This document shows positions 4,496-29,577 of a stretch of 64,000 bases of DNA, piece by piece. The stretch is from Terriglobia bacterium. GTDB taxonomy: Bacteria > Acidobacteriota > Terriglobia > Bryobacterales > Bryobacteraceae. Within the stretch, counting starts at the first letter, position 1; each line of letters opens with the position of its first letter. A program made the translations under genes and the position numbers. Location: assembly GCA_020073445.1 (NCBI GenBank), contig JAIQFE010000010.1, positions 88,740 through 152,739 on the forward strand. The letters are read 5' to 3'. The notes under the pieces were generated by a model. The model did no database searches and had not been told where the DNA came from. It saw nothing but the letters and a program-made list of their open reading frames with translations.

Positions 4496-6823
4496 ATGAA
4501 AAAGAAAAACACCGTGAAGAATATCGATCGTCGCTCCTTTTTGACCGTGGCAGCCACCGGAACGGGTGGCGTGCTGTTTGGACTGGTATTTAAGGCGGAT
4601 GCCCAGCAGGGCGCTGCCAAAGGCGCTCCTCCGGCCGGAGGCCGTGGCGGCGCGGGTGGCTTCGGAGGCCCGGGTGCCGCGCTGAAGCCTGCCGACTTCA
4701 TCACCGTCAACTCCGACAACAGCGTCACCATCGTCGCGAAGAACCCCGAAGTAGGCCAGGGCGTTCGCTCGTTGTTGCCGATGCTGATCGCCGAAGAACT
4801 CGACGTCGATTGGAAGGACGTTAAAGTCGTCCAGGCCGATCAGGATCAGGCTAAGTACGGCGGCCAGATCGCGGGCGGCAGCACGGCGACCCCAACCAAC
4901 TGGGTTCCGATGCGGCAGCTCGGCGCGCAGGCGCGGATGATGTTCGTCAACGCCGCGGCGCAGACCTGGAATGTTCCCGCAGCCGATCTGACTACCGGTT
5001 CCGGCAAAGTGATGCACAAGGCATCTAACCGGACCATCACCTACGGCGAACTGGCTTCGAAAGTGGCCAGCATGACGCCTCCGGATGCCGCGTCGATCAA
5101 GTACAAGGATCCGAAAGACTACAAGATCATCGGGACGACGGTTCCCAGCCCCGATCTTCCCAAGATCATCACCGGCAAGCCGGTTTTTGGCATCGACCAG
5201 ACTGTTCCTGGCATGCTGTACGCCGTGTACGAGAAGTGCGGCGTGTTCGGCGGCAAGGTTAAGACGCATAATCTCGACATGATCAAGACGCTGCCGGGCA
5301 TCAAGGCTGCGTTCGTGGTTGACCGGCCGGACATCACCGCCGCGGTACTACCCGGCGATCCGGGTCTTGAGAGCGGAATCGCGATCGTCGCGGAATCGTG
5401 GTACCAGGCGAATTCGGCTCGCAAGAAGCTGCAAGTCACCTGGGACGAAGGCACTCGCGCGACTGCGGATCACAGCAGCACCGCGTACGCCGCGAAAGCG
5501 CAAACCATCGGCATGGGCGAGCCCATGAGCACCACGCGCAAGGACGGTGATCCGGAAGGCGCCATCAAGACTGCGGCCAAGAAAGTGGAAGCGAACTATA
5601 CGTATCCGTTTATTTCGCACGCACCGCTCGAACCGCAGAACTGCACGGCGCATTATAAGGACGGCAAGCTGGAGCTGTGGACCAGCAGCCAGATTCCGAC
5701 GGGCGCCCGTGGGTTGGCTGCCACGGCTTGCGGCATCGATCAGAGTGCCATCACGCTGCACATGGTCCGCGGCGGCGGCGGCTTCGGCCGGCGCTTGACC
5801 AACGATTACGCGGCGGAAGCGGCGTACATCTCCAAGGAAGTCGGAGCTCCGGTAAAGCTGCTCTGGACCCGCGAAGACGATATGAAGCACGACTATTATC
5901 GTCCCGGCGGGTACCAGTTCCTTTCGGCCGGTCTCGACGCGTCGGGCAAGGTAGTCGCGTGGCGGAATCACTTCGTCACCTACGGCGCCAAGAACGACGG
6001 CCAGGGCAAGGGTCCCGCGATCCAGTCCGTCAGCGCGGGCGGCATCGGCGCGACCGAGTTCCCGCAACCGTTCATCGAGAACTTCGCGCTGTACACTTCG
6101 GCTCAGCCGCTGGCGATCCGCACGGGTTCGCTGCGCGCTCCGACGAGCAACGCGATGGCGTTCGTCACGCAGAGCTTCATCGACGAGCTGGCGCATGCCG
6201 CCGGCAAGGATCCGGTGCAGTTCCGCCGCGATCTGTTGTCGCAGACCAAGCCCGCTCCTCCTCCTGCACCTGGCGGATTCGGTGGCGGTAACGCGTTCAA
6301 CGCGTCCCGTATGCGTGGCGTCCTTGACCTGGTCGCCGAGAAGTCGGGCTGGGGCAAGAAGACGCTTCCCAAGGGCACCGCGATGGGCGTGGGTTTCCAC
6401 TTCAGCCATAGCGGTTACTTCGCGGAAGTCGCCGAAGTCACCGTTAGCGGCAACAAGAAGGTGAAGGTGAACAAGGTGTGGGTCGCCGCCGACATCGGCA
6501 GCACCATCATCAATCCCGGTCAGGCGATGAACATGGCGCAGGGCGCCATCATCGATGGCATGGGCGCGATGATGGAGCAGGAGATTACGGTGGATCACGG
6601 CCACGTGGTGCAATCGAACTTCGATACGCATCCGCTGCTCCGGATTACCGCGGCTCCGGCCGACATCGAAGTGCACTACGTCCTGTCGAACAATCCTCCG
6701 ACTGGTATGGGCGAACCGTCCATGCCCCCGATTCTGCCGGCAATCGCGAATGCGATCTTCTCGGCAACGGGCGATCGCGTCCGGTCGCTGCCTTTCAAGA
6801 AGGCGGGCTATAGCTGGGCGTAA
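4496..6823 (+). CDS. Molybdopterin-dependent oxidoreductase large subunit (IorB-like, xanthine dehydrogenase family) with a Tat signal.
   Basis: 775 aa. Twin-arginine leader NIDRRSFLTVAATGTGGVLFG. Size and composition are typical of the aldehyde oxidase / xanthine dehydrogenase Moco-binding fold. The start is 13 nt after the 2Fe-2S subunit stop, so the two are probably co-transcribed. Confidence 0.8.
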   Translation: MKKKNTVKNIDRRSFLTVAATGTGGVLFGLVFKADAQQGAAKGAPPAGGRGGAGGFGGPGAALKPADFITVNSDNSVTIVAKNPEVGQGVRSLLPMLIAEELDVDWKDVKVVQADQDQAKYGGQIAGGSTATPTNWVPMRQLGAQARMMFVNAAAQTWNVPAADLTTGSGKVMHKASNRTITYGELASKVASMTPPDAASIKYKDPKDYKIIGTTVPSPDLPKIITGKPVFGIDQTVPGMLYAVYEKCGVFGGKVKTHNLDMIKTLPGIKAAFVVDRPDITAAVLPGDPGLESGIAIVAESWYQANSARKKLQVTWDEGTRATADHSSTAYAAKAQTIGMGEPMSTTRKDGDPEGAIKTAAKKVEANYTYPFISHAPLEPQNCTAHYKDGKLELWTSSQIPTGARGLAATACGIDQSAITLHMVRGGGGFGRRLTNDYAAEAAYISKEVGAPVKLLWTREDDMKHDYYRPGGYQFLSAGLDASGKVVAWRNHFVTYGAKNDGQGKGPAIQSVSAGGIGATEFPQPFIENFALYTSAQPLAIRTGSLRAPTSNAMAFVTQSFIDELAHAAGKDPVQFRRDLLSQTKPAPPPAPGGFGGGNAFNASRMRGVLDLVAEKSGWGKKTLPKGTAMGVGFHFSHSGYFAEVAEVTVSGNKKVKVNKVWVAADIGSTIINPGQAMNMAQGAIIDGMGAMMEQEITVDHGHVVQSNFDTHPLLRITAAPADIEVHYVLSNNPPTGMGEPSMPPILPAIANAIFSATGDRVRSLPFKKAGYSWA

Positions 6824-6877
6824 TTCCTAGTGAGCTGTAACATGAAGAGGGGGTGCGCAAGCGCCCCCTTTTTCTTT

Positions 6878-8026
6878 ATGAGACTCCGGATTCTATCTCT
6901 CGCGCTGCTGGTCCTCGCGGCAGCTTCCGCAGTTTTCGCCGAGACCGACACCGTCAGCGTGGCTTCTCCGGACGGGCAGCTGGTGTTGCGGCTGTTTGTC
7001 GTGTCGCCGAAGGACGCCATCCTGGTGCGGCTGGCTTACTCGGTGACCTTTCACGGGAAGCTGCTGATGGATACCTCCCTGCTCGGGATCGCGATCCACG
7101 ACCAGGAAGTGTTTCTCGGAGAGACCGTGGGGTTGGTCAGTGCGACCCCGGCATCCGTGAACCAGCCTGGCAACCGCTACAATTCCCTCATCGCGCAATA
7201 TATTCAGAATGGTTCGTTGGGACGCCGCATCACGATCGAAGCGCGCGCATACGACGACGGCATCGCCTTCCGCTATTACATCCCGCGCACCAGTACTGTG
7301 GAGGACTTGCAGATCGAAGAAGAGCTGACCGATTTCCATTTCGCTCAGGATGGAGATGCGTACACGGCGGTCGCTCCCGATTACCAGTCGAAAAAAGGCG
7401 ACTACGGCAAAACGAAAATGAGCCGCATCGAGCGAAGCTCCCTTCTCGCGCTGCCCCTTCTGGTCGAACAGCCCGGAGTGGGCTGGGTGGCAATCACCGA
7501 GGCACAAATCGACAACTTCCCCGGGATGTACGTGTTCCATCCCGAGGGCACCACGATGCGCACGACGCTCACGCCGCGCTTCGATGACGCGGCTCTGACG
7601 ATGCATGGAGTCTCGCCGGCGGAGACTCCCTGGCGGGTCCTGATGGTCGCAACCGAGCCTCGCAAGCTGCTTGATTCCGACATCGTCAAGAATCTGAACC
7701 CGGCCTCCGCGATCGCCGATACGTCCTGGATCAAGCCGGTGAAGGATTACGTTCCCATCACATACTCGGCCGATCTGGCGGACCACCTGCCGGAGGAGCT
7801 CACGAGAGCCCAAAAATCGGGTGCGGCTGGTGTGACGATCGACCTCATGCATCGCTCCGACCAGCAGATGATCGCACTCTACCGTCGCGCGGCCAAGGCT
7901 GCAGCCGAGCATCACCTGATGATCGAGTTTCTGAACGGTCCGACCCCGGATGGGATCGAGCGAACCTGGCCCAACGTGGTCGCGCGCGAGGACACGCAGT
8001 TCAAGCGCCTGCTCGGGAGTTTCTAG
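6878..8026 (+). CDS. Glycoside hydrolase family 97-like protein, apparently truncated: N-terminal domain plus a fragment of the catalytic domain. Probably a gene remnant.
   Basis: Start chosen at MRLRILSLALLVLAAASAVFA (signal peptide); the track ORF begins 6830. The N-terminal domain matches the GH97 pattern (...GWVAITEAQIDNFPGMYVFHP..., ...TPWRVLMV...ADTSWIKP). The C-terminal stretch VTIDLMHRSDQQMIALYRRAAKAAAEHHLMIEFLNGPTPDGIERTWPNV resembles the SusB catalytic-domain block (KIDFMDRDDQEMV...YHLMVDFHG..KPTGL.RTYPN). The protein is only about 383 aa against about 650-740 for intact GH97, so most of the TIM barrel and the whole C-domain are missing. Confidence 0.5.
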   Translation: MRLRILSLALLVLAAASAVFAETDTVSVASPDGQLVLRLFVVSPKDAILVRLAYSVTFHGKLLMDTSLLGIAIHDQEVFLGETVGLVSATPASVNQPGNRYNSLIAQYIQNGSLGRRITIEARAYDDGIAFRYYIPRTSTVEDLQIEEELTDFHFAQDGDAYTAVAPDYQSKKGDYGKTKMSRIERSSLLALPLLVEQPGVGWVAITEAQIDNFPGMYVFHPEGTTMRTTLTPRFDDAALTMHGVSPAETPWRVLMVATEPRKLLDSDIVKNLNPASAIADTSWIKPVKDYVPITYSADLADHLPEELTRAQKSGAAGVTIDLMHRSDQQMIALYRRAAKAAAEHHLMIEFLNGPTPDGIERTWPNVVAREDTQFKRLLGSF

Positions 8027-17355: not shown

Positions 17356-18437
17356 GCAGCGGCGTCGTCCCAGATCTGTTGGACCAGATCGGCGGCTGGG
17401 ATCGGTCGTGCCAGCGCGGCGGATTGACCTGCCCACACTTGCATGCGATGGTGGTCGCCGGCGGCGGCACCGGCTTCTTTCATCGCGGCGGTCAAGCCTC
17501 GCTGGACCGGATACGGTGCGGGAAGCGGAGCATCGTGCGATGCAGCCGCTCGTACATAATTGGTCGCGATCGCGCGGCCCAGGCGTCCGGTAAAAGCTCT
17601 GGTGAGTGTGGTGCCTTCGGGTTCGAGATCGACGAGCGCGTTTGCCCACGCGGGATGGGTCTGGGCTTCCGGACACCGTAGAAAGGCCGTCCCGAGCATC
17701 GCCGTACTGGCGCCCAGAGTCAAAGCGGCGGCCACGCCCCGGCCGTCGCCAATCCCGCCGGTCGCGATGATCGGGAGGTCGATCACATCGGCAAGACGGG
17801 GGACCAGTGCGAACAAACCCACGCCTTGGCGCTCGGCGGCCGCAGGGTCGGCTGGGTAAAAGAACGATCCTCGATGGCCACCGGCTTCATAACCCTGGGC
17901 GATGATCGCATCCGCACCCGCATCGCGCGCGAGTTTTGCCTCGTGGATCGTGGTGGCGGTTGCGAACCACGCGATACGACGGTCCTTTAGCCGTGTCACA
18001 AAGGACGCGGGGAACACGCCCATGATGGAAGACACGGCTGTGGGCGCGACCTCCAGCAACGTCTCGCACTGCGCATCGAAGTCAGGCGGAACCGTGTCAC
18101 CGGCAGACGCCGGCACCGTTGGACCCCACGACTCGAGAAATTTCCTGATTCGTTCCTCGGTGGCAGGATCCCGGATTGGCTTGGGATCTGGAATCCACAG
18201 GTTTATCTGGAAGGGACCGCTGCTGCTGGATCGGAATTCCTGTACCTACGAGCGGATTCCCGCGGGTGGTGTGAGCAGGGCGCCGGTCGCACCCATTCCC
18301 CCGGTGTTCGCCACGGCGATGGAGAGGCTCGCAGGAGAGGCACCTGCCATGGGAGCAACCAGTATGGGGACCTTGAGGCCGTATGTTTCGCAGAATGAGT
18401 TGGCGCGATCGAGTGGGAGCGATCTCTTGATCGTCAT
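17316..18437 (-). pseudogene. Nitronate monooxygenase (2-nitropropane dioxygenase family) interrupted by a single in-frame TAG at 18248..18246.
   Basis: Track ORFs 18246..18437 (MTIKRSL...VPILVAPMAGASPASLSIAVANTGGMGATG...) and 17316..18116 are in the same frame. My manual translation across the gap gives ...PAGIRS*VQEFRSSSSGPFQINLWIPDPKPIRDPATEERIRKFLESWGPTVPASAGD... This contains the NMO PFgvNl-type motif (GPFQINLW) and continues into ..IIAQGYEAGGHRG.. The only interruption is one amber codon. Confidence 0.65.
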
Positions 18438-18518
18438 GCTCTCAATATAACCGCGGAATTACGTCTGAACCTTTGGGTGGTGACCGCTCCATCACCGTCG
18501 CGGCTCGGTACAGGGGAG

Positions 18519-19892
18519 CTATTCCGGCGGCTCGTCCGGCAGATCGTCGATGCGATTTTCGAAGCGAGTATATTGCCCCAAAAACCGCAGCGGCACTGTC
18601 CCGATCGGACCGTTACGTTGCTTAGCGATGATCAGGTCGGCCAGCCCCTTCAAGCTAAGGTCGTCCCTCTTGTAAATTTCCTCGCGGTGGATGAAGCCGA
18701 CCAGGTCGGCGTCCTGCTCAATCGATCCCGAGTCGCGGAGATCGCTCAACATCGGCTTGTGATCGCCCGGCCGTTGCTCGGAGGCGCGGCTCAACTGCGA
18801 CAAAACTAAGAAGGGCACTTCCAGGTCCTTGGCCATCAGCTTCAGGCCGCGCGAAATGGCCGATACTTCCTGGTTGCGGTTCTCGATCCGGCCCATGCTG
18901 CTCATCAACTGGAGATAGTCGATGATCACCAGCGCCAGGCCATGCGTGTTCTTCAGGCGCCGCAGCTTGGAGTGGACGTCCATCAGGTTGACGCCCGCCG
19001 AATCGTCCATAAACAGCGGCGATTCGGTAATCTGCGCCAACGTGAAATGCAGCTTTCGGCGCTCCTCTTCGTTGAGGTAGCCCGCTCGAAACTTGTGCTG
19101 GTCGACGCGCGCGCCCGCGCACAGCAAGCGCGTCAGCAAACTCGCCGACGACATTTCGAGCGAGAAGATCGCCACCGGCTTCTGCATCTGCGGATGCGTC
19201 GCCACGTGCTGCGCGATGTTGAGTGCCAAAGCCGTCTTGCCCATGGATGGCCGAGCCGCCAGGATCACCAGCTCACCTGCGTGGAGGCCGCCGGTCATCT
19301 CATCGAACTTCGCAAATCCGGTACTGAGGCCCCGCACGCGCTGGCTGGGATCGAGAAAGGCGTTGGCGCCGCCCGGGAAGCTCTCGACGATGCTGGCAGG
19401 CGAAGATAGTTGCTCGCTCGCCGATGCCTCACCCAGCTTCAGCAGCGATTCTTCCGCCGACGCCAGGATCTTGTCCGGCTGCTCTTCACCGATCAGGCAG
19501 CGATCAATAATCCTCTGCGAGCTGAAGATCAGCTTGCGCAGCATCGCCTTATCCTTGACGATGCGGACGTAGCTGTCGAGGTTGGTGATCTCCGGCAGGC
19601 CGTCGTCGAGCGAGACTAGGTACGCCAGGCCGTCCACCGATTCGAGCTGGCCCTGCTTCATCAGCTCTTCGGCGAGGGTGACGCGGTCGATGCGCTCGCC
19701 GCGCCCGTACAGATCCCGCATGCGGCCGTAGATGCGGCGGTGCTTCTCCAGGCTGAAGTCTTCGGGTGATAAGGAACCCGCGACCTGGAGGTATACTGCG
19801 TCGTTGAGCAGGATCGAGCCGAGAACCAGCCGCTCGGTGTCTACGCTTGCGGGCAGACCTTTCTCAAATGTCAGATCCGCGGTTGCCATCAT
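18519..19892 (-). CDS. dnaB: Replicative DNA helicase.
   Basis: 457 aa. DnaB N-terminal domain (..ERLVLGSILLNDAV..), Walker A ..ILAARPSMGKTALALNIA.., and ..LVIIDYLQLM.. Confidence 0.9.
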   Translation of the reverse strand: MMATADLTFEKGLPASVDTERLVLGSILLNDAVYLQVAGSLSPEDFSLEKHRRIYGRMRDLYGRGERIDRVTLAEELMKQGQLESVDGLAYLVSLDDGLPEITNLDSYVRIVKDKAMLRKLIFSSQRIIDRCLIGEEQPDKILASAEESLLKLGEASASEQLSSPASIVESFPGGANAFLDPSQRVRGLSTGFAKFDEMTGGLHAGELVILAARPSMGKTALALNIAQHVATHPQMQKPVAIFSLEMSSASLLTRLLCAGARVDQHKFRAGYLNEEERRKLHFTLAQITESPLFMDDSAGVNLMDVHSKLRRLKNTHGLALVIIDYLQLMSSMGRIENRNQEVSAISRGLKLMAKDLEVPFLVLSQLSRASEQRPGDHKPMLSDLRDSGSIEQDADLVGFIHREEIYKRDDLSLKGLADLIIAKQRNGPIGTVPLRFLGQYTRFENRIDDLPDEPPE

Positions 19893-20107
19893 TTTGGGGT
19901 GCTTCTTACCTTAACCGGTTCGTCACAGTCCGTTACACTTTTTTTTGGCCGTTCCCCTTCTCGCACTTACAACGAGGAAAAACCTGTGGAAGATCGTGCG
20001 CGAACGGTGAACGCCAACTTGTTGAGATCAAAGCCGCGGCGGAACGATTTCCACACACACTCTCTAAATCATTTTACCGCGATTGTGTTTTGGAGGGTGG
20101 ACGGCGC

Positions 20108-20872
20108 CTATTGCTTAGCGTCGTCCTTCTTGGCTTCGTCTTTCGGGGGCTCGGCAGGAAGCGGTTCGATCACCGCCGTGGTGATCTTGTCGAGCCGTGG
20201 GAAGTTCTTTTCAAGGAATGCATTGCCCTGGTTCATGATCTCGCCTTGGAGATTCGTGACCTGCTCGCCGTAGCCGGTATACAGCATGTCGAGATTATCC
20301 AGACCTTCGATCACTTCGCCAAAGGGGGCGAATCCCATGCTGTCCAGGTAACCGTTGTCTACCTTGCTGATGAAAACCTGCACGGAGCGGCTATTCTTGT
20401 CGCCAGTGGAGGCAAAGGTGACCATGGCGCGTTTGTTGGACTGAATCGGACGGTCGTCGAACATGGTGTGTTCCATCCAGACTCGCGATATTTCCGGCCG
20501 TGAAGGGATTCCGAACTGCGCGAATTGCTTGGTGGAGCGGAAGATGACGTTGTTGTTATAGAAACCGGCGCGAACCAGGTTATAGAAGCGGTCGGCGCCA
20601 ATGGGCGCCCAGTTCTTGGTGACGCGGATGACGATGGGTCCCTTGGTGGTGTTCAGCTTCACCAGGTACACCGGGGGCGCTTTCGCGTTCAGCGTCGACG
20701 GGTCGAGCAGATTCGGTCCAGCTTTAGCCTTGGTGGCCGCTTTGGGCGCACCGGCCTTTGGCGCGCTTTTTGCAGCGGGTGCCGGGGCAGATTTGGTCTG
20801 CGCGAGCGCGGCGGCACACACCGCTGCCAACAACATGATCGAGGAGAGGAAAGCGTTCTTCATACGAAGCAT
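20108..20872 (-). CDS. Secreted cyclophilin-type peptidyl-prolyl cis-trans isomerase with a C-terminal K/D/E-rich tail.
   Basis: 254 aa. Signal peptide and an Ala/Lys/Pro-rich linker, then the cyclophilin core (..VIFRSTKQFAQFGIPS.., ..MVTFASTGDKNSRSVQVFI..). Confidence 0.7.
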   Translation of the reverse strand: MLRMKNAFLSSIMLLAAVCAAALAQTKSAPAPAAKSAPKAGAPKAATKAKAGPNLLDPSTLNAKAPPVYLVKLNTTKGPIVIRVTKNWAPIGADRFYNLVRAGFYNNNVIFRSTKQFAQFGIPSRPEISRVWMEHTMFDDRPIQSNKRAMVTFASTGDKNSRSVQVFISKVDNGYLDSMGFAPFGEVIEGLDNLDMLYTGYGEQVTNLQGEIMNQGNAFLEKNFPRLDKITTAVIEPLPAEPPKDEAKKDDAKQ

Positions 20873-20881
20873 TATTCTATC

Positions 20882-21475
20882 TCAGATTCCGAAGGGTTCC
20901 GTCAGCGTTTTCGTCCACTCGTTGAAGGCGATCTTTTCTCCCTGGCGGTTGTGCCACCAGCCGTTGGACGTAAAGTATTTGTCCGGCGCGGCCACGACGA
21001 CGAATTTCAGGTCTGGCGCGGCGGTGCGGTAGATCTTTCCAGCGCGGCGGGTATGGTAATCGCTGGTGACCAGCAGCACTTTGTGCGCGCCCATCTGGCG
21101 CAGTCGCACAATCGCATCGTGCGCTTCCTCTTTGGTGGATAGGGCGTCGTTTTCAAAATGCAAGAAGTAAGACGCGGGGTATCCGGACTTCACCGCAAAG
21201 GGTATCGCCAGGTCGCACTCGTATTGCCCGTAGACTCCGGAAGGCCCGCTGACCAGGACCTTGGAGACGTAGCCTCGCCGGGCGAGTTGAGCGGCTTTGA
21301 GGATCCGGTTGCCTTCTCCATCGCCTGCCAGCACCAGGGCGATATCGGCCTTTTCTGGCGGATCGGCCTGGATCAGGTAGGAACCGAGTTCTGTCAGGAC
21401 TGCGTTATGGAAAATGACCCCGAGGATGACAATGGCGATGAAAAGGAGCGCAAGAATACGAGTCGAACGCTTCAA
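20882..21475 (-). CDS. YdcF/DUF218 (ElyC/SanA-like) family protein.
   Basis: 197 aa. N-terminal TM helix. DUF218 pattern ..ADIALVLAGDGEGNRILKAAQLARRGYVSKVLVSG.. and ..VLLVTSDYHTRRA.. Confidence 0.7.
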   Translation of the reverse strand: MKRSTRILALLFIAIVILGVIFHNAVLTELGSYLIQADPPEKADIALVLAGDGEGNRILKAAQLARRGYVSKVLVSGPSGVYGQYECDLAIPFAVKSGYPASYFLHFENDALSTKEEAHDAIVRLRQMGAHKVLLVTSDYHTRRAGKIYRTAAPDLKFVVVAAPDKYFTSNGWWHNRQGEKIAFNEWTKTLTEPFGI

Positions 21476-21481
21476 TGAAGT

Positions 21482-22096
21482 TTACTGCTCGTCGGAGCCG
21501 CGCTGGTCCAGCCTGCCCACGGATTTCAGCCGCTGGAACATTCGCTCGATTTCTTCTTCCTCTTCGGGCCGCAGCAGAGGCCGGTAGACCGGGGAAGATT
21601 GACGTTGGGGGCCGGACTCGAGTGTCTTTCGAGGTTCGGATCTTTTCTCAAGCCCAGGCTTTTCTCCCGGCTCTCCCCAAGCCTGACGATAGGGAATCCC
21701 GTCGAGCAGCGCGTTGCGCGAGTAGCGTCGCAGGTGACGCAGCAAACTGGTGGAGGAATCCAGGTCGCCGGCGTATAATAGGAACACGCGGCGGTCGGTG
21801 GAAAGCGTCAGAGAGACGACCAGAGGAGCAATCCAGCCGGTCTGGTCTAGCCTGCGAATTTCGCGCCATAGGATAATCCGCCGGCCCAGTTGCAGATGGG
21901 TCTCATAGATTTCGATTTCGGGTTGCCACAGGAGCGTGATCAACGCCACCGAAGTTACGCCGAAGAGTCCGGCCGCGATCCAGGTGGAAGGCCAGCGCAG
22001 GCCGGTCCAGGCTGAGAAGATGGTTCCGCAGATCGCCAGAAGCGCAAACAGAAGGTAGCGGCGTGAAGGTCGGTAGCGGGCCAGCGGGCGACTCAC
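21482..22096 (-). CDS. Hypothetical membrane protein (two N-terminal TM helices, acidic C-terminus).
   Basis: 204 aa. Its ATG overlaps the stop of the upstream small ORF in an ATGA arrangement. No family recognised. Confidence 0.5.
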   Translation of the reverse strand: MSRPLARYRPSRRYLLFALLAICGTIFSAWTGLRWPSTWIAAGLFGVTSVALITLLWQPEIEIYETHLQLGRRIILWREIRRLDQTGWIAPLVVSLTLSTDRRVFLLYAGDLDSSTSLLRHLRRYSRNALLDGIPYRQAWGEPGEKPGLEKRSEPRKTLESGPQRQSSPVYRPLLRPEEEEEIERMFQRLKSVGRLDQRGSDEQ

Positions 22097-22725: not shown

Positions 22726-23604
22726 TTACTGCGTGGTCGGGAACGTCTTGGAGATGTGGTCGTGCCAGGTGAGGTTTTCTTCATCGACCAGCGCCCAGAC
22801 CAAACCGAGTCCTGCGGAAAGCAGGCTCAGCAGGCTGGCGATCTGGCGAATGCCGCGCTGCTCGCGGTCCGGCCGCCGGCCGTCGAAATCCACCAGGCGC
22901 AATCCGGCGAAGCGCATCCCCGGGGAATCGCCGTTGGCCAGGCACCACAGAGCCCGATAGAACAGCGCGATGACAACCGTGACTCCGAGCATGAAGGACA
23001 GAGCCTGGCGATCCAGGGCTACCTGGCCTCCTGACAGGAAGAAAATCGTCAGGAATACGGCCACGCCCATCAGAACCAAGCTGCCGTCCACGGCCGCCGC
23101 GACCAGACGATGCGTGGGAGCCGCCACGGGCGCATCGCAATCGATGGTCTCTCCCGGCTGGACGCGGACTTCTGCCGGCGATTCCTGAAATCCCAGGCTT
23201 CGCTGTAGGTGGCTCTGCTGGGAATCCGAACGGCGATGCTGCGACCGCATGGGAGAAACCCCGCGAGTCGCCGGGCGTTGCCGGGTCGCCGTCCGAGTCG
23301 TGTCGCGATGTGTGTCGCGATGATAGGGGTGCAGCGGTGTCAGCGTCGGGATGGGAATGACTTTGCTTCCCGCGGTCCCGTCCCGAAAAAGAGAGGTCTG
23401 ATAGTTGGGAGTCTCCTGCGGCTGCGCGGGAAGGGGATCCTCCGCGGCAAAAACATCCAGGGCGGGCGCGGTGGCGGCCCCACTAATCCCATTCGCGCTG
23501 CGGACAGGGAAAGGCCCGGGCGCATCGCCGTTGAGGCGCCGACCGCAATGGACACACCGATCCTCCGCCTCTTCGTTCACGGCGCGGCAGTGCGGGCAAT
23601 GCAT
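22726..23604 (-). CDS. RDD-family membrane protein with an N-terminal zinc-ribbon (start at MHCPHC; the track ORF extends to 23748).
   Basis: CxxC...CxxC zinc ribbon (MHCPHCRAVNEEAEDRCVHCGRR), a long Pro/Arg/Thr-rich linker, then a C-terminal RDD-like TM domain (..RLVAAAVDGSLVLMGVAVFLTIFF..GMRFAGLRLVDFDG..). The upstream 48 codons (MLRRIKEKKEIKALKRNRSRAR...) may or may not be translated. Confidence 0.6.
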   Translation of the reverse strand: MHCPHCRAVNEEAEDRCVHCGRRLNGDAPGPFPVRSANGISGAATAPALDVFAAEDPLPAQPQETPNYQTSLFRDGTAGSKVIPIPTLTPLHPYHRDTHRDTTRTATRQRPATRGVSPMRSQHRRSDSQQSHLQRSLGFQESPAEVRVQPGETIDCDAPVAAPTHRLVAAAVDGSLVLMGVAVFLTIFFLSGGQVALDRQALSFMLGVTVVIALFYRALWCLANGDSPGMRFAGLRLVDFDGRRPDREQRGIRQIASLLSLLSAGLGLVWALVDEENLTWHDHISKTFPTTQ

Positions 23605-23698
23605 AATCGGGTCTGGTTCCTTGGACTCCGGCCACCTTGAACTTGGGACGCTTGGTGACCTTTTTGGTCTTGACTGTTCTAGCCGCGCTCTGCTACGG

Positions 23699-26071
23699 TT
23701 GCGCTTGAGAGCTTTTATCTCTTTCTTCTCTTTTATCCTTCGTAACATAAACCAGCCGATTTGTCACGGACTTTGTGTGCTAGTCCTGGCCGGTTTACTT
23801 ACGCCCAGCACTACGTTACAAGCCCAAACCTACCGGCCCACCTTACCTCCGCCCGCCGTTCCGGTCCAGCCGGGCCCCAACCCCAATCTGGCGATCCGGC
23901 CGCCCCGGCCCACGGCTCCCGGACCCGGCGAGACCGCCAAGACCCAGGGGGATCAAGAGGAATCCGATGGCAAGGTGCTGCACCTGCGCGGCAACGCCCG
24001 CGTCGAGACGGCGGATGCTCTGCTCACCGCCGATGAGATCGACTACAACCAGGAAACACACGAAGCTGAAGCTCGCGGCAAGGTCCGTTACGAGAGCTTC
24101 TCTCACGGCGAGAAGCTGAATTGCGACAGGGCGGAATACAACACGGAGAGCAAGACCGGAAAATTCTATAACGTCAACGGAACTTCGCCCGCCCGCATCG
24201 AGGCCCGCCGTGGACTGTTGACCACGCAGAATCCCTTTTACTTTAGCGGCGAATGGGCTGAAAAGACGGAGGATCGCTACCTCCTGCACAACGGCTTCCT
24301 CACCGATTGCCTGATCCCGGCACCCTGGTGGAGGCTCAAGGGGCCGACCTTCGACATCATCCCCGGGGACCGGGCGATCTCCAAGGCGTCGTGGTTCTAC
24401 GTCAAAGAAGTTCCCATCTTTTACACGCCATACTTCTACAAATCGTTGAAGAAGCAGCCGCGCCGCAGCGGCTTGCTCACCCCTAGCATCGGCAACAGCT
24501 CCATTCGGGGAAAGACCGTGGGCGTCGGCTATTTCTGGGCGATCAATCGCAGCTACGACCTTACCTATCGCGGATTGTTCTACTCCCAGACCGGGTTTGG
24601 ACATCAGGCCGATTTTCGCGGCGTGGTAAGCAAGAACACCTACTTCGATGTCTCCCTCTACGGCATAACGAGCACCAATGCCAACGCCATCTCGCCTAGC
24701 GGATTGGTGCTGTCGGTGGAAGGAAAGTCGGACTTGGGCAAGGGTTGGGAGGCGCGTGGCGATCTCAAGTATTTGTCATCCTTCGTTTTCCGCCAGCAGT
24801 TTACGCAGTCCTTCGACGAGGCCGTCTCGTCGGAAACTCACTCGGTGGGCTACATCACCAAGCACTGGTCCGATTACGGCTTCAATTTCGTGGCGGAGCG
24901 CAACGTCAATTTTCAAAGCACCGCTCCTAACGATGAGATCGTGCTTCGTAAGCTGCCGGAGGTGCAATTTACCGAGCGTGAGCATGAGGTGGGGAAACTG
25001 CCCGTATGGTTCTCCTTCGATAGCAGTTTCGGGTTGGAGCGCCGCACCGAGCCCGAGTTCCAGACCCGCCAGTTCGTACAGCGCGTGACTTTCGAGCCGC
25101 GCGTGATGACCGCCGTGCACTGGCACGGATTCGATCTTGCGCCCAGCTTCGGCGTTCACGAGATCGCCTACGATTCCCGCATCACCAACAATGTGGTGAG
25201 CGGCGACAATGTGCAGCACTTCGCCCGAGACGTCTCACTGGATGTATCTGTGCCGCCGCTTTCGCGGATCTTCGATGCTCCGAAGTGGATGGGTCGCGGA
25301 AAAGGAGCCAAGCTCAAACACGTCATCGAGCCGCGGGTGACCTATCGCTACGTCACCGGGATCGAAGATTTTAACAATGTAGTCCGGTTCGACGATACGG
25401 ATATTCTCAACGATACGAACGAAGTCGAGTACTCGCTGACCAATCGGCTGCTGGCGAAAGACAGCAACGGAAGCGTGTCCGAGGTACTGAGCTGGCAGCT
25501 ATGGTACAAGCGCTATTTGGATCCAACCTTCGGCGGCGCCGTGATCCCCGGCCAGCCGAACGTCCTGATGAGCACCGTGGATATCACGGGCATTCCGTTT
25601 GTGGATGGGGCCCGGCATCAGTCGCCGGTGGTGAGCGTGCTCCGGTACCAGTCGAACCTGAACCTGGAATGGCGCGCGGATTACGATCCGGTCCAGCATG
25701 GAATCATCGACAGCGGAATCAGTGTCGACCGGCGCGTAAAGCAGTTGTTCGTTTCACTGGGAGACTACCTGTTGAAGAGCAATCCTCTGCTGGGGGCTCC
25801 GGGCTCCAATCAGTTGCGCGGACAGGTTACCTATGGCGGCGATAACCGGCGCGGGTGGAACTATGGGTTCAGCGCGTTTTACGACTATCGCCTGGGCGTG
25901 ATGCAGTTCGCGCAGAGCCAGGTGACCTACAACACCGATTGTTGCGGCTTCAGCGTGCAATACCGGCGATTCAACTTCGGTACGCGCGATGAGAACCAGT
26001 TCCGTGTGGCGTTCGCGGTGTCTAACATCGGCAGCGTGGGAACGTTACGGAAGCAGGATCGGATCTTCTAG
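23699..26071 (+). CDS. lptD: LPS-assembly outer-membrane protein LptD (OstA family), probable TTG start.
   Basis: The track ORF starts 23405, but its first about 100 codons are antisense to the RDD gene. A TTG at 23699 gives the signal peptide LRLRAFISFFSFILRNINQPICHGLCVLVLAGLLTPSTTLQAQ. OstA-like N-terminal domain (..GNARVETADALLTADEIDYNQETHEAEARGKVRYE..) and a large beta-barrel-sized C-terminal region. The cognate lptE lies about 9 kb downstream. Confidence 0.6.
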   Translation: MRLRAFISFFSFILRNINQPICHGLCVLVLAGLLTPSTTLQAQTYRPTLPPPAVPVQPGPNPNLAIRPPRPTAPGPGETAKTQGDQEESDGKVLHLRGNARVETADALLTADEIDYNQETHEAEARGKVRYESFSHGEKLNCDRAEYNTESKTGKFYNVNGTSPARIEARRGLLTTQNPFYFSGEWAEKTEDRYLLHNGFLTDCLIPAPWWRLKGPTFDIIPGDRAISKASWFYVKEVPIFYTPYFYKSLKKQPRRSGLLTPSIGNSSIRGKTVGVGYFWAINRSYDLTYRGLFYSQTGFGHQADFRGVVSKNTYFDVSLYGITSTNANAISPSGLVLSVEGKSDLGKGWEARGDLKYLSSFVFRQQFTQSFDEAVSSETHSVGYITKHWSDYGFNFVAERNVNFQSTAPNDEIVLRKLPEVQFTEREHEVGKLPVWFSFDSSFGLERRTEPEFQTRQFVQRVTFEPRVMTAVHWHGFDLAPSFGVHEIAYDSRITNNVVSGDNVQHFARDVSLDVSVPPLSRIFDAPKWMGRGKGAKLKHVIEPRVTYRYVTGIEDFNNVVRFDDTDILNDTNEVEYSLTNRLLAKDSNGSVSEVLSWQLWYKRYLDPTFGGAVIPGQPNVLMSTVDITGIPFVDGARHQSPVVSVLRYQSNLNLEWRADYDPVQHGIIDSGISVDRRVKQLFVSLGDYLLKSNPLLGAPGSNQLRGQVTYGGDNRRGWNYGFSAFYDYRLGVMQFAQSQVTYNTDCCGFSVQYRRFNFGTRDENQFRVAFAVSNIGSVGTLRKQDRIF

Positions 26072-26337
26072 CAGACAGGCAGAATACCGTGGAGAATTTC
26101 ACACGTCCCGCGTCAGGGGCGCCCGCGTCGAACCGGAACAACAAGTACGAATCGGCGACCTCTAATGTCTCCAGCAGCTTTGTCCGAGTGGCTCGTAAGC
26201 CAGCCGCAAGGTCGGGCTCACTTCAACAACACCGTTTTCAGGGACGCCAGGCGTCAACCGGAAGATAATGCGAAAGCAAAGGCTTCGGGGCACCCAGCAA
26301 ACACACGCTCCTCACCCGAAGCGCGTATCATCACTAA

Positions 26338-29043
26338 ATGGCCGGACACCACCTACTCCTCCATCTGCCGGAGAACTGGTCCAATGACGAACGCGGTGCT
26401 TTCTTCGAAGACTTTATCGGCGACCTTTTGCGCCCAATGCGTCTTGCTGTGGAGAAGCGGCTGCGCGTCACGGGCATGGAAATCGATTTGTTGGCCCGGG
26501 GGTTAGACCAACCCCGAAAGGTTCTGGTCGAGTGCAAAGCGCAACGCGACGCGCTGCCAGCCGATGTAATATCCAAGCTCCTAGGGAATGTCACAATTCG
26601 TGGGGCAGACAGCGGGTGGCTCTTCTCTGCCAGCGACTTGGGGAAAGATGGCCGAGGTCAGTGGGAGGAGATACAGAGACAGCCGCAGCTAGCTTCGAAA
26701 TTCATGTGGTTTCCGCCCGAACGGATAGTGGCGATACTTCTCGACCAGCGAACAATTGTTGACCCGACAACCGCTCTGCTGAAACTAACGCCGCAAACCG
26801 AAACCTTTGGAGATGCGACTCTGATCTGTGCGCCCAAAGGCAAGTTTTGGCTAATAGAAATACTGCGCGACGGTCTTCCTGCTTCTTATACCGTAGTCAA
26901 TGCCGCGGACGGTGCACCCCTGGACGAGGAACAAGCTCTAGAGGTGGCGGGGTTTTCAGATCGGTTCATCGCACTGACTTTCGAAGACGTGCGTGCTTCA
27001 ACCGTCTCAATCTATCAACCCCCTCCACATTCGCCCATCGCTCGCGTTGTGCCAGGAGACACGTGGGATGACCTTCGCCCAGCCCGTCCGAACGACTTTG
27101 TAGGTAGAGACGATCTCATCAAGGATATTTTTCAATTCCTTGAGCAGGTGCGAATGGGCAATACGGCAACCAGGACCTTCGCCGTTCAAGGACCTAGTGG
27201 CTGGGGCAAGAGTTCCCTCGTGATCAAACTTGTTGACCTCGTCAGTAAGGGTCGGCGAATAACGAACTGCTCGTTGACGGCAGTCGACAGCCGTTCTGCT
27301 ACATCCGCAGCGTTCGTAAGTGGAGCTATTCGCCTTGCCTTGAATGACGCAGCGGCTGCGGGGCTACTCAGCAACGCAAATCACGACATTGTTAGCCTGA
27401 CGCATCCGCTTGATTCTCCGGATATCTTGTCCGCAGCAGAGCAATTGAATCAAAACAGCGGTGTGGTGATACTCGTCTTTGATCAATTCGAGGAGCTTTT
27501 CACCAAGGAAGCGCTTTTCGAAACCTTCAACGCCATCAGAGAACTGAGCGTTGATCTAGACAGCAAACAAATTCCGATTGTGCTCGGATTTGCATGGAAA
27601 ACGGATGTATCTTTGCCCCAGCAGCATCCGGCGTATCATTTATGGCACTCACTCGCCGATAGGCGAAAGGATTTCAGAGTCCGACAGTTTGGCGCACCAG
27701 ACATTGGCAAAGTTATCACGCACGCCCAACGCCAAATTGGCCTCTCTTTGGTCCCGGCCTTGAGAACAAGATTGATAGAACAATGCCAAGGGTATCCTTG
27801 GTTGCTCAAGAAACTGCTCGTGCATGTAGCCAAGCGCTTAGAGGAGGCTGCTTCTCAGTACGAACTCCTTGAACGAGAATTGGATGTTCAAGCATTGTTT
27901 GAAGAAGACTTAGCTGGGCTCGCATCCGACCAAGTACGCTGTCTCAAATATGTCGCCGAGCGAGCTCCAGCGTATGTCTCAGAGGTTGAAGAGCATTTTA
28001 GCTCGGAAATCGCGAATTTCTTGCTGTCGAAGAGGCTGTTGGTCCGAAGCGGATTGAACTACGTAATTTATTGGGACATCTTCCGTGACTATCTGGTCGA
28101 GGGCCGTGCCCCTCAAATACCTTGGACACGAACGTTCCAGCGCGATCCCAACTCAGCAGTTCAAGCGGTAAGGTGTGTTTCACAAGAGCAACCGATTTCG
28201 GTAAAGCGCATCTCCGAACTGCTCGGCGGGTCCGAGAGAGGTTGGGTTAACGTGATGAGCGATCTTGTAGCCCTCCAGCTTGTAGACAGGATCGCAGAAG
28301 ACAGTTATCGTCTTGCCCCGCACGTCAAGTCCATATCCCCTGTTGACCTAGCTGTCCACATCCATGGACAGCTCTCACGCCACGTCGTATGTCGAGAACT
28401 GACAGCGATAGAGAGAGATGCTATCGTTTCTAACGACATGCTGGACCGTCTAGTAGAGAAAACAAGGCCAGCGAGCACTCCCTCTCCCGTCGTAATCCAT
28501 CAGTACGCGATGAATCTGAAGAAGTGGTTATTGTTTTCCGGACATCTAGAAGAGCGCGGAAGTTTTCTCTACCGGCCAGCCGGTAAGGGTTCACAAATGG
28601 GCCTGCTGAAAGCCCGCAAGAATCGAGGGAAGAAGTTCTTAGGGAGTGGAACACCGGATGCGCTCATGAAACTTGTCGCCCTCCTTGCAGGAGGGGGTAG
28701 CGATGGCGTCCCCGAAGCACAACTGATGAAAATGGGCCTAAGAAATGCAGTTTATGACGCGGTCGCGTTGCAACTCGTCGATCGAACTGAAGATCGAGCG
28801 GTGCGGTTGGCTCGCTCTCTGCGCGACACGCGCGATTTTGATCAGATCGTTCGCCGTGAGATCATCAAACAGCCAAGCACTGCTATCGTTGCGGCCGCAC
28901 TACGTGACTCACCCGACATCTCGAATTTGGCGCTGGGAGATAAGTTGAGAACTGGGCTTCAACAAGATTGGAGACCAACGTCGGGGCTTCGATACGCGAA
29001 TGGTGTGAGACGGTATTTTGAATGGGCTTCGCGGCCAACATAA
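26338..29043 (+). CDS. Fusion protein: Mrr-type PD-(D/E)xK nuclease domain, NB-ARC/STAND-like P-loop NTPase, and tandem winged-helix modules. Candidate single-gene antiphage/defence NTPase; not assignable to a named system.
   Basis: 901 aa. PD-(D/E)xK residues: FEDF (aa 23-26), GMEIDLL (D50), KVLVECK (E65, K67). NB-ARC-like entry FVGRDDLIKDIFQFL, then Walker A QGPSGWGKSSL (nt 27190-27216). Walker B VVILVFDQFEE (nt 27463-27495). GxP-like CQGYPWLL (nt 27784-27807). The C-terminus has repeated wH-like modules ending DLVALQLVDR (nt 28261) and DAVALQLVDR (nt 28756). Hand-counted 60-nt lines inside the gene give 45-50% GC against 63-67% in the flanks. Confidence 0.75.
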   Translation: MAGHHLLLHLPENWSNDERGAFFEDFIGDLLRPMRLAVEKRLRVTGMEIDLLARGLDQPRKVLVECKAQRDALPADVISKLLGNVTIRGADSGWLFSASDLGKDGRGQWEEIQRQPQLASKFMWFPPERIVAILLDQRTIVDPTTALLKLTPQTETFGDATLICAPKGKFWLIEILRDGLPASYTVVNAADGAPLDEEQALEVAGFSDRFIALTFEDVRASTVSIYQPPPHSPIARVVPGDTWDDLRPARPNDFVGRDDLIKDIFQFLEQVRMGNTATRTFAVQGPSGWGKSSLVIKLVDLVSKGRRITNCSLTAVDSRSATSAAFVSGAIRLALNDAAAAGLLSNANHDIVSLTHPLDSPDILSAAEQLNQNSGVVILVFDQFEELFTKEALFETFNAIRELSVDLDSKQIPIVLGFAWKTDVSLPQQHPAYHLWHSLADRRKDFRVRQFGAPDIGKVITHAQRQIGLSLVPALRTRLIEQCQGYPWLLKKLLVHVAKRLEEAASQYELLERELDVQALFEEDLAGLASDQVRCLKYVAERAPAYVSEVEEHFSSEIANFLLSKRLLVRSGLNYVIYWDIFRDYLVEGRAPQIPWTRTFQRDPNSAVQAVRCVSQEQPISVKRISELLGGSERGWVNVMSDLVALQLVDRIAEDSYRLAPHVKSISPVDLAVHIHGQLSRHVVCRELTAIERDAIVSNDMLDRLVEKTRPASTPSPVVIHQYAMNLKKWLLFSGHLEERGSFLYRPAGKGSQMGLLKARKNRGKKFLGSGTPDALMKLVALLAGGGSDGVPEAQLMKMGLRNAVYDAVALQLVDRTEDRAVRLARSLRDTRDFDQIVRREIIKQPSTAIVAAALRDSPDISNLALGDKLRTGLQQDWRPTSGLRYANGVRRYFEWASRPT

Positions 29044-29232
29044 AGTGGTTCTTGCCCGTGATCATCCCCAAAGTTCGGCTTCTGGGAACTTGGGGTTGGC
29101 TCCGTCAGAATGGATGGCGACTCGTACAAACTGAAGCCGAACCTAGCCAGGAAGCGGAGATTCGGGCAGCTGGTCCTAACCGCCTGTTGGTTCGAAGGAC
29201 GCCCGATGCTCAACGGGTTTATGAGGTTGTTT

Positions 29233-29577
29233 CTAGTCCGTCTTGGTCGTGGTGCTGGCGGGCTTCGATTCGGTCTTAGTCTCGGATGACTTCGTCTCGG
29301 AGGACTTCGATTCGGCAGGTTTGGATTCGGTGGACTTTGACTCGGCCTTTGTGTCTGCGTCTTTTTTATCCGAGTCTTTCTTCTGAGAAGAAGATCCGCT
29401 CTTAGCGTAGTCGGTAGCGTACCAACCGGTGCCCTTGAGGCTGAATCCGGACAAGGATATCAACCGTTCCACCGTTCCTCCGCAGGCTTCGTGAACGGTC
29501 AGCGGGGCGTCGGCGAACTTCTGGATCACTTCAAACTTTTCGCCACACTTCGAGCATAGGTATTCGTACAACGGCAT
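29233..29577 (-). CDS. FmdB-family zinc-ribbon regulatory protein with a repetitive S/K/E/T-rich C-terminal tail.
   Basis: 114 aa. MPLYEYLCSKCGEKFEV...HEACGG is the FmdB CxxC...C motif. The tail is ..KKDSDKKDADTKAESKSTESKPAESKSSETKSSETKTESK.. Confidence 0.75.
   Translation of the reverse strand: MPLYEYLCSKCGEKFEVIQKFADAPLTVHEACGGTVERLISLSGFSLKGTGWYATDYAKSGSSSQKKDSDKKDADTKAESKSTESKPAESKSSETKSSETKTESKPASTTTKTD

Follow-up and report, generated by a model that had tools for sequence, protein, structure and literature searches.

A compact Mrr nuclease-nSTAND1 protein with a tandem winged-helix sensor, a candidate antiviral receptor inserted as a one-gene cassette in an acidobacterial genome

Introduction

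Most Avs2 proteins, and Avs8A (PD-lambda-4A), combine an Mrr-like nuclease with a STAND NTPase (PMC13601566, PMC12236752), and the Avs8A protein of this build degrades DNA once its trigger is bound (PMC12236752, PMC13601566). As far as the accessible parts of the published accounts go, bacterial STAND receptors with known triggers (Avs2, Avs7, Avs8 and Avs10-21) sense phage proteins. The largest survey to date, by Lee et al. (2026), covers Avs1-24 with 589 NTPase clades and 684 sensor structural clusters; it describes mostly TPR-like repeat sensors and leaves C-terminal regions of <400 aa out of its sensor clustering (PMC13581612).

Two other groups of systems are relevant. The nSTAND1 clade dates from 2021, when it was set up for NTPases of conflict systems; these systems carry EAD/Death-like adaptors, peptidase/TIR-type effectors and lectin/FGE-type domains, according to the accessible text of the two descriptions (PMC8195603, PMC10907252). 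EAD domains are themselves conflict-system adaptors (PMC7159879). Mrr_cat also occurs with winged-helix (wH) modules in type IV Mrr and wH-fusion endonucleases (PMC11037411).

Here, a gene that touches on all three groups is described from a 64,000-nt stretch of a Terriglobia bacterium genome (contig JAIQFE010000010.1, positions 88,740 to 152,739), referred to as the window. An initial annotation had read the gene as an undescribed defence module, and its 901-aa ORF is present exactly as described, with every quoted motif recovered within 3 nt of the position given for it. What is new is its small sensor of tandem wH units; the NTPase clade and the logic of coupling Mrr to STAND are known, the latter from Avs2 and Avs8.

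Domain architecture

The nuclease and NTPase portions of the protein comprise the following features.

26338..29043, + strand: 901-aa ORF with Mrr nuclease, unknown domain, nSTAND1 NOD and tandem-wH sensor (ORF, Pfam, AF2 model)
26338..26745, + strand: Mrr_cat PD-(D/E)xK nuclease domain, aa 1-136 (Pfam PF04471, E 7.5e-8)
26755..26982, + strand: beta-rich domain between nuclease and NTPase, aa ~140-215 (DSSP of AF2 model)
27088..27612, + strand: nucleotide-binding domain (NBD), aa 251-425, with Walker A at 27187-27219 (K291) and Walker B at 27463-27495 (D382) (Pfam nSTAND1, AAA_16)
27625..27852, + strand: helical domain HD1, aa 430-505, with CQGYPWLL at 27784-27807 (AF2 model)
27856..28113, + strand: winged-helix domain (WHD) of the NOD, aa 507-592 (AF2 secondary structure)

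The N-terminal domain matches Mrr_cat (PF04471) over aa 20-111 with 32.9 bits against a curated Pfam cut-off of 21, and this match recurs in nearly all homologs. Its motifs FEDF (aa 23), GMEIDLL (aa 46, including D50) and KVLVECK (aa 61, including E65 and K67) hold the catalytic triad, encoded at 26485-26487 for D50 and 26530-26538 for E65-x-K67. None of these three residues varies among 97 full-length homologs (32-86% identity). The Mrr-type PD-(D/E)xK fold proposed initially holds up, and conservation of the triad argues for an active, predicted DNA-cleaving nuclease.

The central region belongs to a STAND NTPase, as had also been proposed. nSTAND1 (PF20703) matches aa 252-504 with 55.8 bits (curated cut-off 27.1); AAA_16 is matched too, and ATPase_2 matches some homologs weakly. 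Residues G288, G290, K291, S292 and S293 of Walker A (QGPSGWGKSSL, aa 284) and D382-E386 of Walker B (VVILVFDQFEE, aa 376) are invariant in the 97 homologs, as are P487, W488 and L489 in the GxP-like motif of HD1 (CQGYPWLL, aa 483). HD1 is strongly basic, with a family median charge of +8, and the WHD is the most conserved segment of the protein (66% mean identity). Together, these parts form the NBD-HD1-WHD arrangement of a NOD, with Walker A, Walker B and the GxP-like motif in place and NLRP3, MalT, NOD2 and Cdc6 as structural neighbours. The first winged helix (aa ~507-592), which had been counted towards the sensor, is the WHD of the NOD.

A beta-rich domain at aa ~140-215, overlooked in the initial annotation, contains strands at 157-165, 168-177 and 180-188 plus helices in the AF2 model (DSSP), and has a mean identity of 38% among homologs. 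Pfam searches of the isolated segments aa 136-250, 505-601, 596-751 and 752-901 returned no match at E<=10, neither to Mrr_N nor to any other DNA-binding domain, and gave the beta-rich domain no family assignment.

Comparison with described systems

Like Avs2 and Avs8A, the protein places on one chain an Mrr-type PD-(D/E)xK effector at the N-terminus, a STAND NTPase in the middle and a sensor at the C-terminus; the Avs-like logic recognised at the outset is indeed the architecture of Avs8A and of most Avs2 proteins. It also resembles them in its horizontal mobility and its association with defence islands (PMC13601566, PMC12236752, PMC11564622). Unlike them, however, it has no sequence match to the PADLOC AVAST or PD-Lambda-4 models or to solved Avs chains, and its NTPase falls in the nSTAND1 clade. 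The Avs sensor is a long C-terminal region, TPR-like in Avs2, whereas here it is a tandem-wH array of ~300 aa in a protein of only 901 aa; and while Avs8 has Avs8B, this protein has no partner gene.

Searches for a name gave little. With PADLOC v2, no family-level match was found for the whole protein: AVAST, bNACHT, PD-Lambda-4 and all other models fail, and the sole matches, SspC (E 0.0016, on the P-loop) and PDC-S02 (E 0.008, on the nuclease), amount to generic P-loop and nuclease noise. NCBIfam likewise gave no family-level match for the whole protein, and PDB sequence searches with the single sequence and with a 97-sequence profile gave nothing significant, solved Avs chains included. No paper naming the Mrr + nSTAND1 + tandem-wH architecture, and no experimental test of any family member, was found in the searchable literature; nor was the architecture found in the accessible text of the nSTAND1 descriptions (PMC8195603, PMC10907252). 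Homologs are labelled 'nSTAND1 domain-containing NTPase' or, by NCBI, 'restriction endonuclease'. The claim that the module is undescribed and without a named family holds only in part: it fits the architecture, which none of the PADLOC, NCBIfam and PDB sequence searches placed in a named Avs family, but not the NTPase, which sits in the named nSTAND1 clade, nor the Mrr+STAND logic, which has been described.

The protein shares with the nSTAND1 conflict-system NTPases (Kaur, Burroughs, Iyer and Aravind 2021; PF20703) an NTPase above the gathering threshold, and with their systems the use of EAD adaptors, since EAD7 is present at the N-terminus of one family variant and EAD1 at the C-terminus of another. 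Sequence identity to NLRP3, NOD2, MalT and Apaf-1 is 12-15%, and these have LRR, TPR or WD40 sensors and CARD, PYD or HTH domains instead of a nuclease. The archaeal ATPase_2 proteins Paby2304 (PDB 2qen) and SSO1545 (PDB 2fna) have neither an Mrr N-terminus nor a tandem-wH tail.

A precise one-gene insertion

The gene lies in a precise inserted islet with the following features.

26072..29230, no strand: inserted islet of 3,159 bp, holding the STAND gene and non-coding flanks only (blastn against empty-site relatives)
26066..26071, no strand: TTCTAG direct repeat, left copy, containing the LptD_2 stop codon (junction sequences)
29231..29236, no strand: TTCTAG direct repeat, right copy, containing the stop codon of the minus-strand Zn_ribbon_8 gene (junction sequences)

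In blastn comparisons with the empty-site relatives L070, L050 and L063, homology stops at 26070/26071 and restarts at 29231. Each of these three empty sites has one copy of the repeat, TTCTAG in L050 and the one-base variants TTCTAA in L070 and TTTTAG in L063, and ~26 syntenic acidobacterial relatives are without the gene. The insertion falls between two convergent housekeeping genes, and the flanking genes (LptD_2, Zn_ribbon_8, S41 peptidase, RDD and Band7) agree with the earlier description of a solitary gene. The low-GC islet noted there is equally clear: GC is 0.537 in the islet against 0.604 in its flanks, dipping to 0.51-0.54 against ~0.60, and the gene's GC3 is 0.55 against 0.70-0.81 in neighbouring genes. 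The gene was acquired horizontally as a one-gene cassette.

No mobility gene was found in the islet and no convincing terminal inverted repeats at its edges. Within the window, no tRNA was found, Rfam gave no RNA family match, and promoter-like and terminator-like sites were not above chance.

Homologs and their neighbourhoods

Full-length homologs of 24-86% identity are scattered patchily across many phyla, including Acidobacteriota, Pseudomonadota, Myxococcota, Deinococcota, Bacillota, Cyanobacteria and Fusobacteriota. More than 300 homologs are genome-resolved, and Lysobacter, Burkholderia and Acinetobacter baumannii are among the carriers. They are always solitary in the loci examined, and in the loci compared no homolog has a neighbour in common with the window copy. 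No homolog was found in 50,697 phage genome records. This patchy spread, the lack of shared synteny and the empty sites in ~26 syntenic relatives do not describe a vertically inherited core gene; on fold, inheritance and the match to named defence families alike, the outcomes that would have told against the initial annotation were not observed.

A STAND regulator of transcription or housekeeping, like MalT/AfsR, in which the winged helices would be a DNA-binding output and the nuclease-like domain non-catalytic, is very improbable: the gene is an accessory one that close relatives lack, its base composition is foreign, no conserved neighbours present themselves as regulation targets, and the nuclease triad is invariant across the family.

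Ten homolog neighbourhoods were inspected, and several contain defence genes. For example, the 86%-identical homolog adjoins a CHAT protein and has a complete Lamassu system 5.5 kb away (LmuA/B/C, E 6e-85, 2e-168 and 1e-48). Another homolog adjoins PDC-S01 (E 4e-81) and a caspase, and a third adjoins a TIR-like effector. With just 10 neighbourhoods, this association is anecdotal rather than statistical, and the window copy itself, surrounded by housekeeping genes and outside any defence island, counts against a defence reading.

Other homologs sit on or beside mobile elements: some are cargo adjoining Tn7/Mu-type rve+TniB genes, one lies in an ICE-like region with TraT, ParB, ArdC and RES, and others adjoin a resolvase with UmuDC or are plasmid-borne. 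The gene is accessory and horizontally transferred, and several homologs lie near defence genes or mobile elements. The mobile contexts, with the 6-bp direct repeat at the window insertion, would also suit a weapon or addiction module of mobile elements, used in competition between plasmids, ICEs or transposons or in post-segregational killing, in which the STAND switch senses a rival element. We consider this improbable, given that the window islet has no mobility gene, that many copies lie in chromosomal housekeeping contexts, and that nucleotide homology to the nearest homologs begins exactly at 26338 and stops at the ORF ends. Defence genes commonly ride on mobile elements, so the mobile context does not discriminate between the readings.

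Some apparent variants of the architecture were set aside. A ~420-aa 'sensor-only' protein (P0183) starts at family position ~490 and has an overlapping upstream ORF encoding the NBD, which makes it the family architecture in split or frameshifted form and not a new one. Four proteins without an Mrr match (P0192, P0265, P0242 and P0132) may be N-terminally truncated calls and were not counted as effector swaps.

The winged-helix sensor

Behind the NOD, the C-terminal sensor of ~300 aa contains two duplicated canonical winged helices.

28135..28323, + strand: sensor winged helix A, aa 600-662, ending in DLVALQLVDR
28330..28578, + strand: sensor helical unit with beta-hairpin, aa 665-747 (AF2 models)
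28579..28653, + strand: basic low-confidence loop, aa 748-772 (pLDDT dip)
28654..28815, + strand: sensor winged helix C, aa 773-826, duplicate of winged helix A, ending in DAVALQLVDR (internal repeat)
28816..29040, + strand: C-terminal four-helix unit, aa 827-901 (AF2 models)

This sensor is far smaller than those of Avs proteins with known triggers. It is built of canonical wH units, and the internal duplication, first suspected from the strings DLVALQLVDR (aa 642, nt 28261) and DAVALQLVDR (aa 807, nt 28756), is borne out by a repeat of residues ~635-696 against ~800-855 (34% identity over 62 aa, pairwise E ~1e-6). Conserved positions include H682, Y723 and W730 in the helical unit (invariant in the 97 homologs) and R802, N803 and D807 in winged helix C. 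Searching 1.84 billion representatives with an HMM of the sensor gave only 388 clusters; of the full-length carriers listed, nearly all share the ~900-aa architecture. Some ~397 aa follow the Pfam NTPase match (505-901) and ~306 aa follow the WHD; being under the 400-aa limit, the region probably fell outside the sensor clustering of Lee et al. (2026), and the protein is probably absent from those clusters.

Conservation is also lowest in the sensor, where mean identity is 28-42%, compared with 60-66% in the nuclease and NOD; the C-terminal four-helix unit evolves fastest (28%). In immune receptors, the sensor is usually the least conserved region.

E. coli Mrr also pairs an Mrr_cat nuclease with a wH, which lies at its N-terminus, and such enzymes have no NTPase switch. 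An NTP-gated relative of type IV restriction nucleases could be envisaged, in which the tandem wH units bind foreign DNA (modified, unusually structured or at ends), the NTPase assembles or clamps on it and Mrr cuts selectively, giving direct restriction rather than protein-triggered suicide. Mrr_cat with wH is the domain set of Mrr-type and wH-fusion type IV enzymes (PMC11037411), HD1 and the loop at aa 748-772 (charge +7 in the window copy) are strongly basic, and the NCBI label is 'restriction endonuclease'. Nevertheless, this reading seems unlikely. In a type IV enzyme of the Mrr or wH-fusion kind, one would expect a wH with a conserved basic surface for reading DNA, joined directly to the nuclease, whereas here a 340-aa STAND NOD lies between Mrr_cat and the wH units, which have no conserved basic recognition surface. 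DNA readers usually make basic contacts, but these units are close to neutral, with a family median pI of 6.8 and 8.9 and a net charge of 0 to +1, and their invariant helix-3 residues are Asn and Asp, with R802 as the one conserved Arg. In addition, homolog neighbourhoods show no conserved partner methyltransferase, and the sensor surface, the fastest-evolving part, suits recognition of a target that varies, for instance a phage protein, better than that of an unchanging DNA chemistry.

The sensor wH units do have the fold of Zalpha domains. Zalpha nucleic-acid readers use a recognition-helix Asn, a Tyr four residues on and a wing Trp (N173, Y177 and W195 in ADAR1). By motif register only, helix 3 of the first sensor unit has the invariant N638 with D642 at +4, the second has N803 with D807, and the wing carries Y657; Asp appears to take the place of the key Tyr. 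A further reading, which we hold to be unlikely, is that the wH array detects infection through nucleic acid, for example by a DNA or RNA in an unusual conformation, by a modification or by an end, and not through a folded phage protein.

Proposed mode of action

Anatomy and context point to a defence function, and the protein is probably a one-chain, NLR-like receptor of the antiviral-STAND type, horizontally acquired, with an abortive-infection nuclease as its effector. By likeness to Avs2, Avs3, Avs4 and Avs8, we infer autoinhibition, ligand-triggered oligomerisation, nuclease activation and abortive infection. At rest, the C-terminal ~300-aa wH array and the NOD would keep the protein a monomer with its nuclease inactive. 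Once the wH sensor bound a ligand derived from infection, the NOD would be free to oligomerise in an ATP-dependent manner, which would gather the N-terminal Mrr-type PD-(D/E)xK domains into an active DNA-cleaving assembly; the indiscriminate DNA degradation that followed would abort the infection. Winged helices classically bind nucleic acid, so a protein trigger is an assumption here: we regard a phage protein as the most likely ligand and a nucleic acid as a less likely one.

Implications

The family fills the blind spot left by the 400-aa limit in the survey of Lee et al. (2026): a probable 900-aa receptor found in many phyla, with a ~300-aa sensor of duplicated winged helices. The window offers an unusually clean natural experiment, with a precise one-gene insertion and empty sites in close relatives. 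If the protein protects against phages, it would be a minimal, tractable NLR-like nuclease and would sharply raise the question of how infection is recognised by a sensor that is so small and has no repeats. Should a nucleic acid prove to be the trigger, this would be the first nucleic-acid-sensing STAND nuclease, a bridge from type IV restriction (wH + Mrr) to NLR-type immunity and a new sensing modality for bacterial NLR biology.

Domain architecture and conservation

The STAND gene (26338-29043, forward strand) encodes a single protein of 901 aa. An initial annotation, made from the sequence alone, read it as an Mrr nuclease, a STAND NTPase and tandem winged-helix (wH) modules fused in one candidate defence protein. 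The reading frame is real, and every motif quoted was found within 3 nt of its given coordinates. In Pfam, Mrr_cat matched aa 20-111 at 32.9 bits (cut-off 21), in agreement with the Mrr-type PD-(D/E)xK N-terminus that had been claimed. The central STAND NTPase also stood, with nSTAND1 matching aa 252-504 at 55.8 bits (cut-off 27.1), although this clade already had a name. AAA_16 was matched as well, and NACHT and NPHP3_N gave matches below threshold. When 97 full-length homologs (32-86% identity) are aligned, the nuclease triad D50/E65/K67, Walker A (G288-x-G290-K291-S292-S293), Walker B (D382-Q-F-E-E386) and P487-W488-L489 of the GxP-like motif are all invariant. The AlphaFold2 model of the full-length protein is confident (pLDDT 89.1, pTM 0.74).

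Predicted domains of the STAND protein (AlphaFold2 model)
aa 1-136: Mrr nuclease
aa ~140-215 (window 26755-26982): beta-rich domain
aa 216-250: linker
aa 251-425: NBD
aa 430-505: HD1, a basic helical domain with the GxP-like motif
aa 507-592: winged helix completing the STAND NOD (NBD-HD1-WHD module)
aa 596-901: sensor
aa 600-662: sensor winged helix A
aa 665-747: sensor helical unit with hairpin
aa 748-772: sensor basic disordered loop
aa 773-826: sensor winged helix C
aa 827-901: sensor four-helix unit

The three wH modules that had been proposed are present, but one is re-assigned because this division places the first in the NOD, leaving a sensor proper of two duplicated winged helices and helical elements. 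The duplication, suspected from the strings DLVALQLVDR and DAVALQLVDR, is recovered between residues ~635-696 and ~800-855 (34% identity over 62 aa, E about 1e-6). The initial observation is thus confirmed and its interpretation supported with two refinements, namely the named NTPase clade and the first wH as part of the NOD. The beta-rich domain between nuclease and NTPase had been missed. It is confidently modelled as three hairpin strands with short helices, matched no family in Pfam, and has a mean identity within the family of only 38%.

Insertion at a variable junction

With the neighbouring S41 peptidase as query, a metagenome scan yielded 80 related acidobacterial loci (60-94% protein identity). 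The order S41 - Zn_ribbon_8 - LptD_2 is kept in about 26 of these, mostly with Band7 or RDD alongside, and the STAND gene is absent from all of them. At the empty sites L070, L050 and L063, LptD_2 and the Zn-ribbon gene converge with overlapping stop codons, and the junction in L050 reads ...GGATCTTCTAGTCGG... Homology of the window to these sites ends at 26070/26071 and restarts at 29231, which delimits a 3,159-bp insert.

Insert and flanking repeats
26072-29230: insert
26066-26071: TTCTAG direct repeat, one end
29231-29236: TTCTAG direct repeat, other end

As had been proposed, the gene is solitary, being the sole content of the insert, and lies in a low-GC islet (GC 0.537 vs 0.604 in the flanks; GC3 of the gene 0.55 vs 0.70-0.81 in its neighbours). 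At the nucleotide level, the closest homologs are similar (77%) over the ORF alone, from its start to its end. Neither terminal inverted repeats nor a mobility gene were found in the insert; the 6-bp repeat may reflect either target-site duplication or microhomology. From these comparisons, the STAND gene is a recent, precise and clean one-gene insertion.

The LptD_2 / Zn_ribbon_8 junction is empty in many related Acidobacteria and filled with unrelated cargo in others (L037-L039, L056, L058, L064, L106, L110-L113), making it a flexible, variable hotspot.

Cargo at the same intergenic point (putative identities, judged by eye from the translations)
CPBP/Abi-like membrane protease
IS200/RAYT-like transposase
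825-aa Ser/Thr kinase
DinB-like gene and nucleotidyltransferase-like gene
amidohydrolase
aspartate kinase and phosphoesterase

The small flanking gene (29233-29577, reverse strand) has an N-terminal Zn_ribbon_8 (FmdB-type, E 4e-14) and keeps its place beside the S41 peptidase in every relative examined. Its low-complexity, Ser/Lys/Glu/Thr-rich tail accounts for short direct repeats at 29257-29330. On the other side, the LptD_2 ORF as mechanically called (23405-26071, forward strand, 888 aa, TTG start) shares about 340 nt with the divergent RDD gene (22726-23748, reverse strand). Since the public call on the same contig begins later (816 aa), the true start is probably near 23621.

Distribution and neighbourhoods

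By word-indexed search, 713 relatives were recovered, of which over 100 are full-length (~900 aa) and have the same Pfam trio. The nearest are Acidobacteriota, at 84% and 66%; other labels include Lysobacter, Burkholderia, Acinetobacter, Corallococcus, Smithellaceae, Thermoanaerobaculia, Deinococcus, Gastranaerophilales, Lachnospiraceae, Oscillospiraceae, Bacilli, Fusobacteriaceae, an alphaproteobacterium and cyanobacteria. No homologs were found in phage genomes. On the IncF Enterobacter roggenkampii plasmid NZ_CP056149.1 (L032), a 664-aa hypothetical protein (5632-7626), directly downstream of an IS3 transposase, has 23% identity to query aa 169-708. Related partial matches turn up on further plasmids of Enterobacter and of Salmonella. 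Such proteins may form a related STAND family of enterobacteria or may be truncated copies.

Across the homolog loci compared, none of the window's neighbour genes recurs, and none of ten inspected neighbourhoods holds a conserved partner gene. Several of the ten are rich in defence or mobilome genes. For example, in L001 (contig Ga0672845_0000156), the 86%-identical homolog has a CHAT-domain protein of 1,268 aa beside it and, at a distance of 5.5 kb, a complete Lamassu system (18257-21644; LmuA E 6e-85, LmuC 1e-48, LmuB 2e-168). A second homolog adjoins PDC-S01 (4e-81) and a caspase; a third has a TIR-like effector and a resolvase next to it. In a further locus the gene comes after rve and TniB genes of Tn7/Mu type, with an integrase and Dcm/Vsr nearby, and in yet another its surroundings (TraT, ParB, ArdC, RES) look like those of an integrative conjugative element. 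In L001, a 311-aa ORF without a family match, absent from the window, overlaps the homolog's stop codon.

Sensor divergence and family variants

Compared with the window protein, nuclease, NBD, HD1 and WHD average 60-66% identity and the four sensor units only 42, 40, 36 and 28%, the pattern that an immune receptor with a diversifying recognition surface is expected to show. The sensor profile matched only 388 clusters among 1.84 billion representatives, and in nearly all full-length carriers listed the sensor occupies positions ~600-900 out of ~900 aa.

Two variants connect the family to the vocabulary of "conflict systems". P0053 (1015 aa) carries an extra N-terminal EAD7 before Mrr, nSTAND1 and sensor, while P0155 (810 aa) lacks the nuclease, begins at the NTPase and ends, after the sensor, in EAD1. 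Both EADs are adaptor domains for which a role in effector recruitment has been proposed (PMC7159879), and these variants suggest that some members recruit effectors in trans. Proteins of ~420 aa, considered as a separate "sensor-only" architecture, proved to be split copies of the same gene. In L114 (contig TANE21-1 scaffold_6568, 1-1709), two overlapping ORFs encode the NBD part and then a 420-aa HD1-WHD-sensor part; this layout recurs in several ~420-aa matches of the representative search, and copies that are split or frameshifted may therefore be common.

Mechanism and trigger

Of the possible readings, an Avs-like single-chain receptor has the best support, and its parts are present and intact. 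By analogy with characterised relatives, a ligand would be bound by the winged-helix sensor, the NOD would then oligomerise with ATP, and the clustered Mrr domains would degrade DNA, aborting infection. DNA cutting by Avs8A requires trigger, Mg2+ and ATP (PMC12236752); Mrr-like nucleases occur in most Avs2, and homotetramers are reported for Avs3 and Avs4 (PMC13601566).

One argument favours a protein as the trigger: the sensor wH units are close to neutral, the residues invariant in their helix 3 (N638/D642 and R802/N803/D807) are not basic contacts, and the sensor surface is variable. Another favours nucleic acid, as the closest relatives of the wH fold bind DNA or RNA, HD1 and the loop at aa 748-772 are basic, and wH plus Mrr_cat is a type IV restriction recipe (PMC11037411). 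Z-DNA binding is not proposed because the Zalpha signature Tyr appears, by motif register only, to be replaced by Asp.

Significance

The NTPase belongs to the nSTAND1 clade, which a computational study of 2021 defined as a conflict-system NTPase (PMC8195603). A 2026 survey counts 589 STAND clades, probably including that of the STAND gene, and limits sensor clustering to at least 400 aa. No description or test of the Mrr, nSTAND1 and tandem-wH architecture was found in the literature searched. The general principle of such receptors is already established, and the STAND gene belongs to a widespread, uncharacterised type of STAND nuclease that is encoded by one gene and whose winged-helix sensor is unusually small. 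Current surveys have a gap into which this compact sensor falls, and it could respond to a novel trigger.
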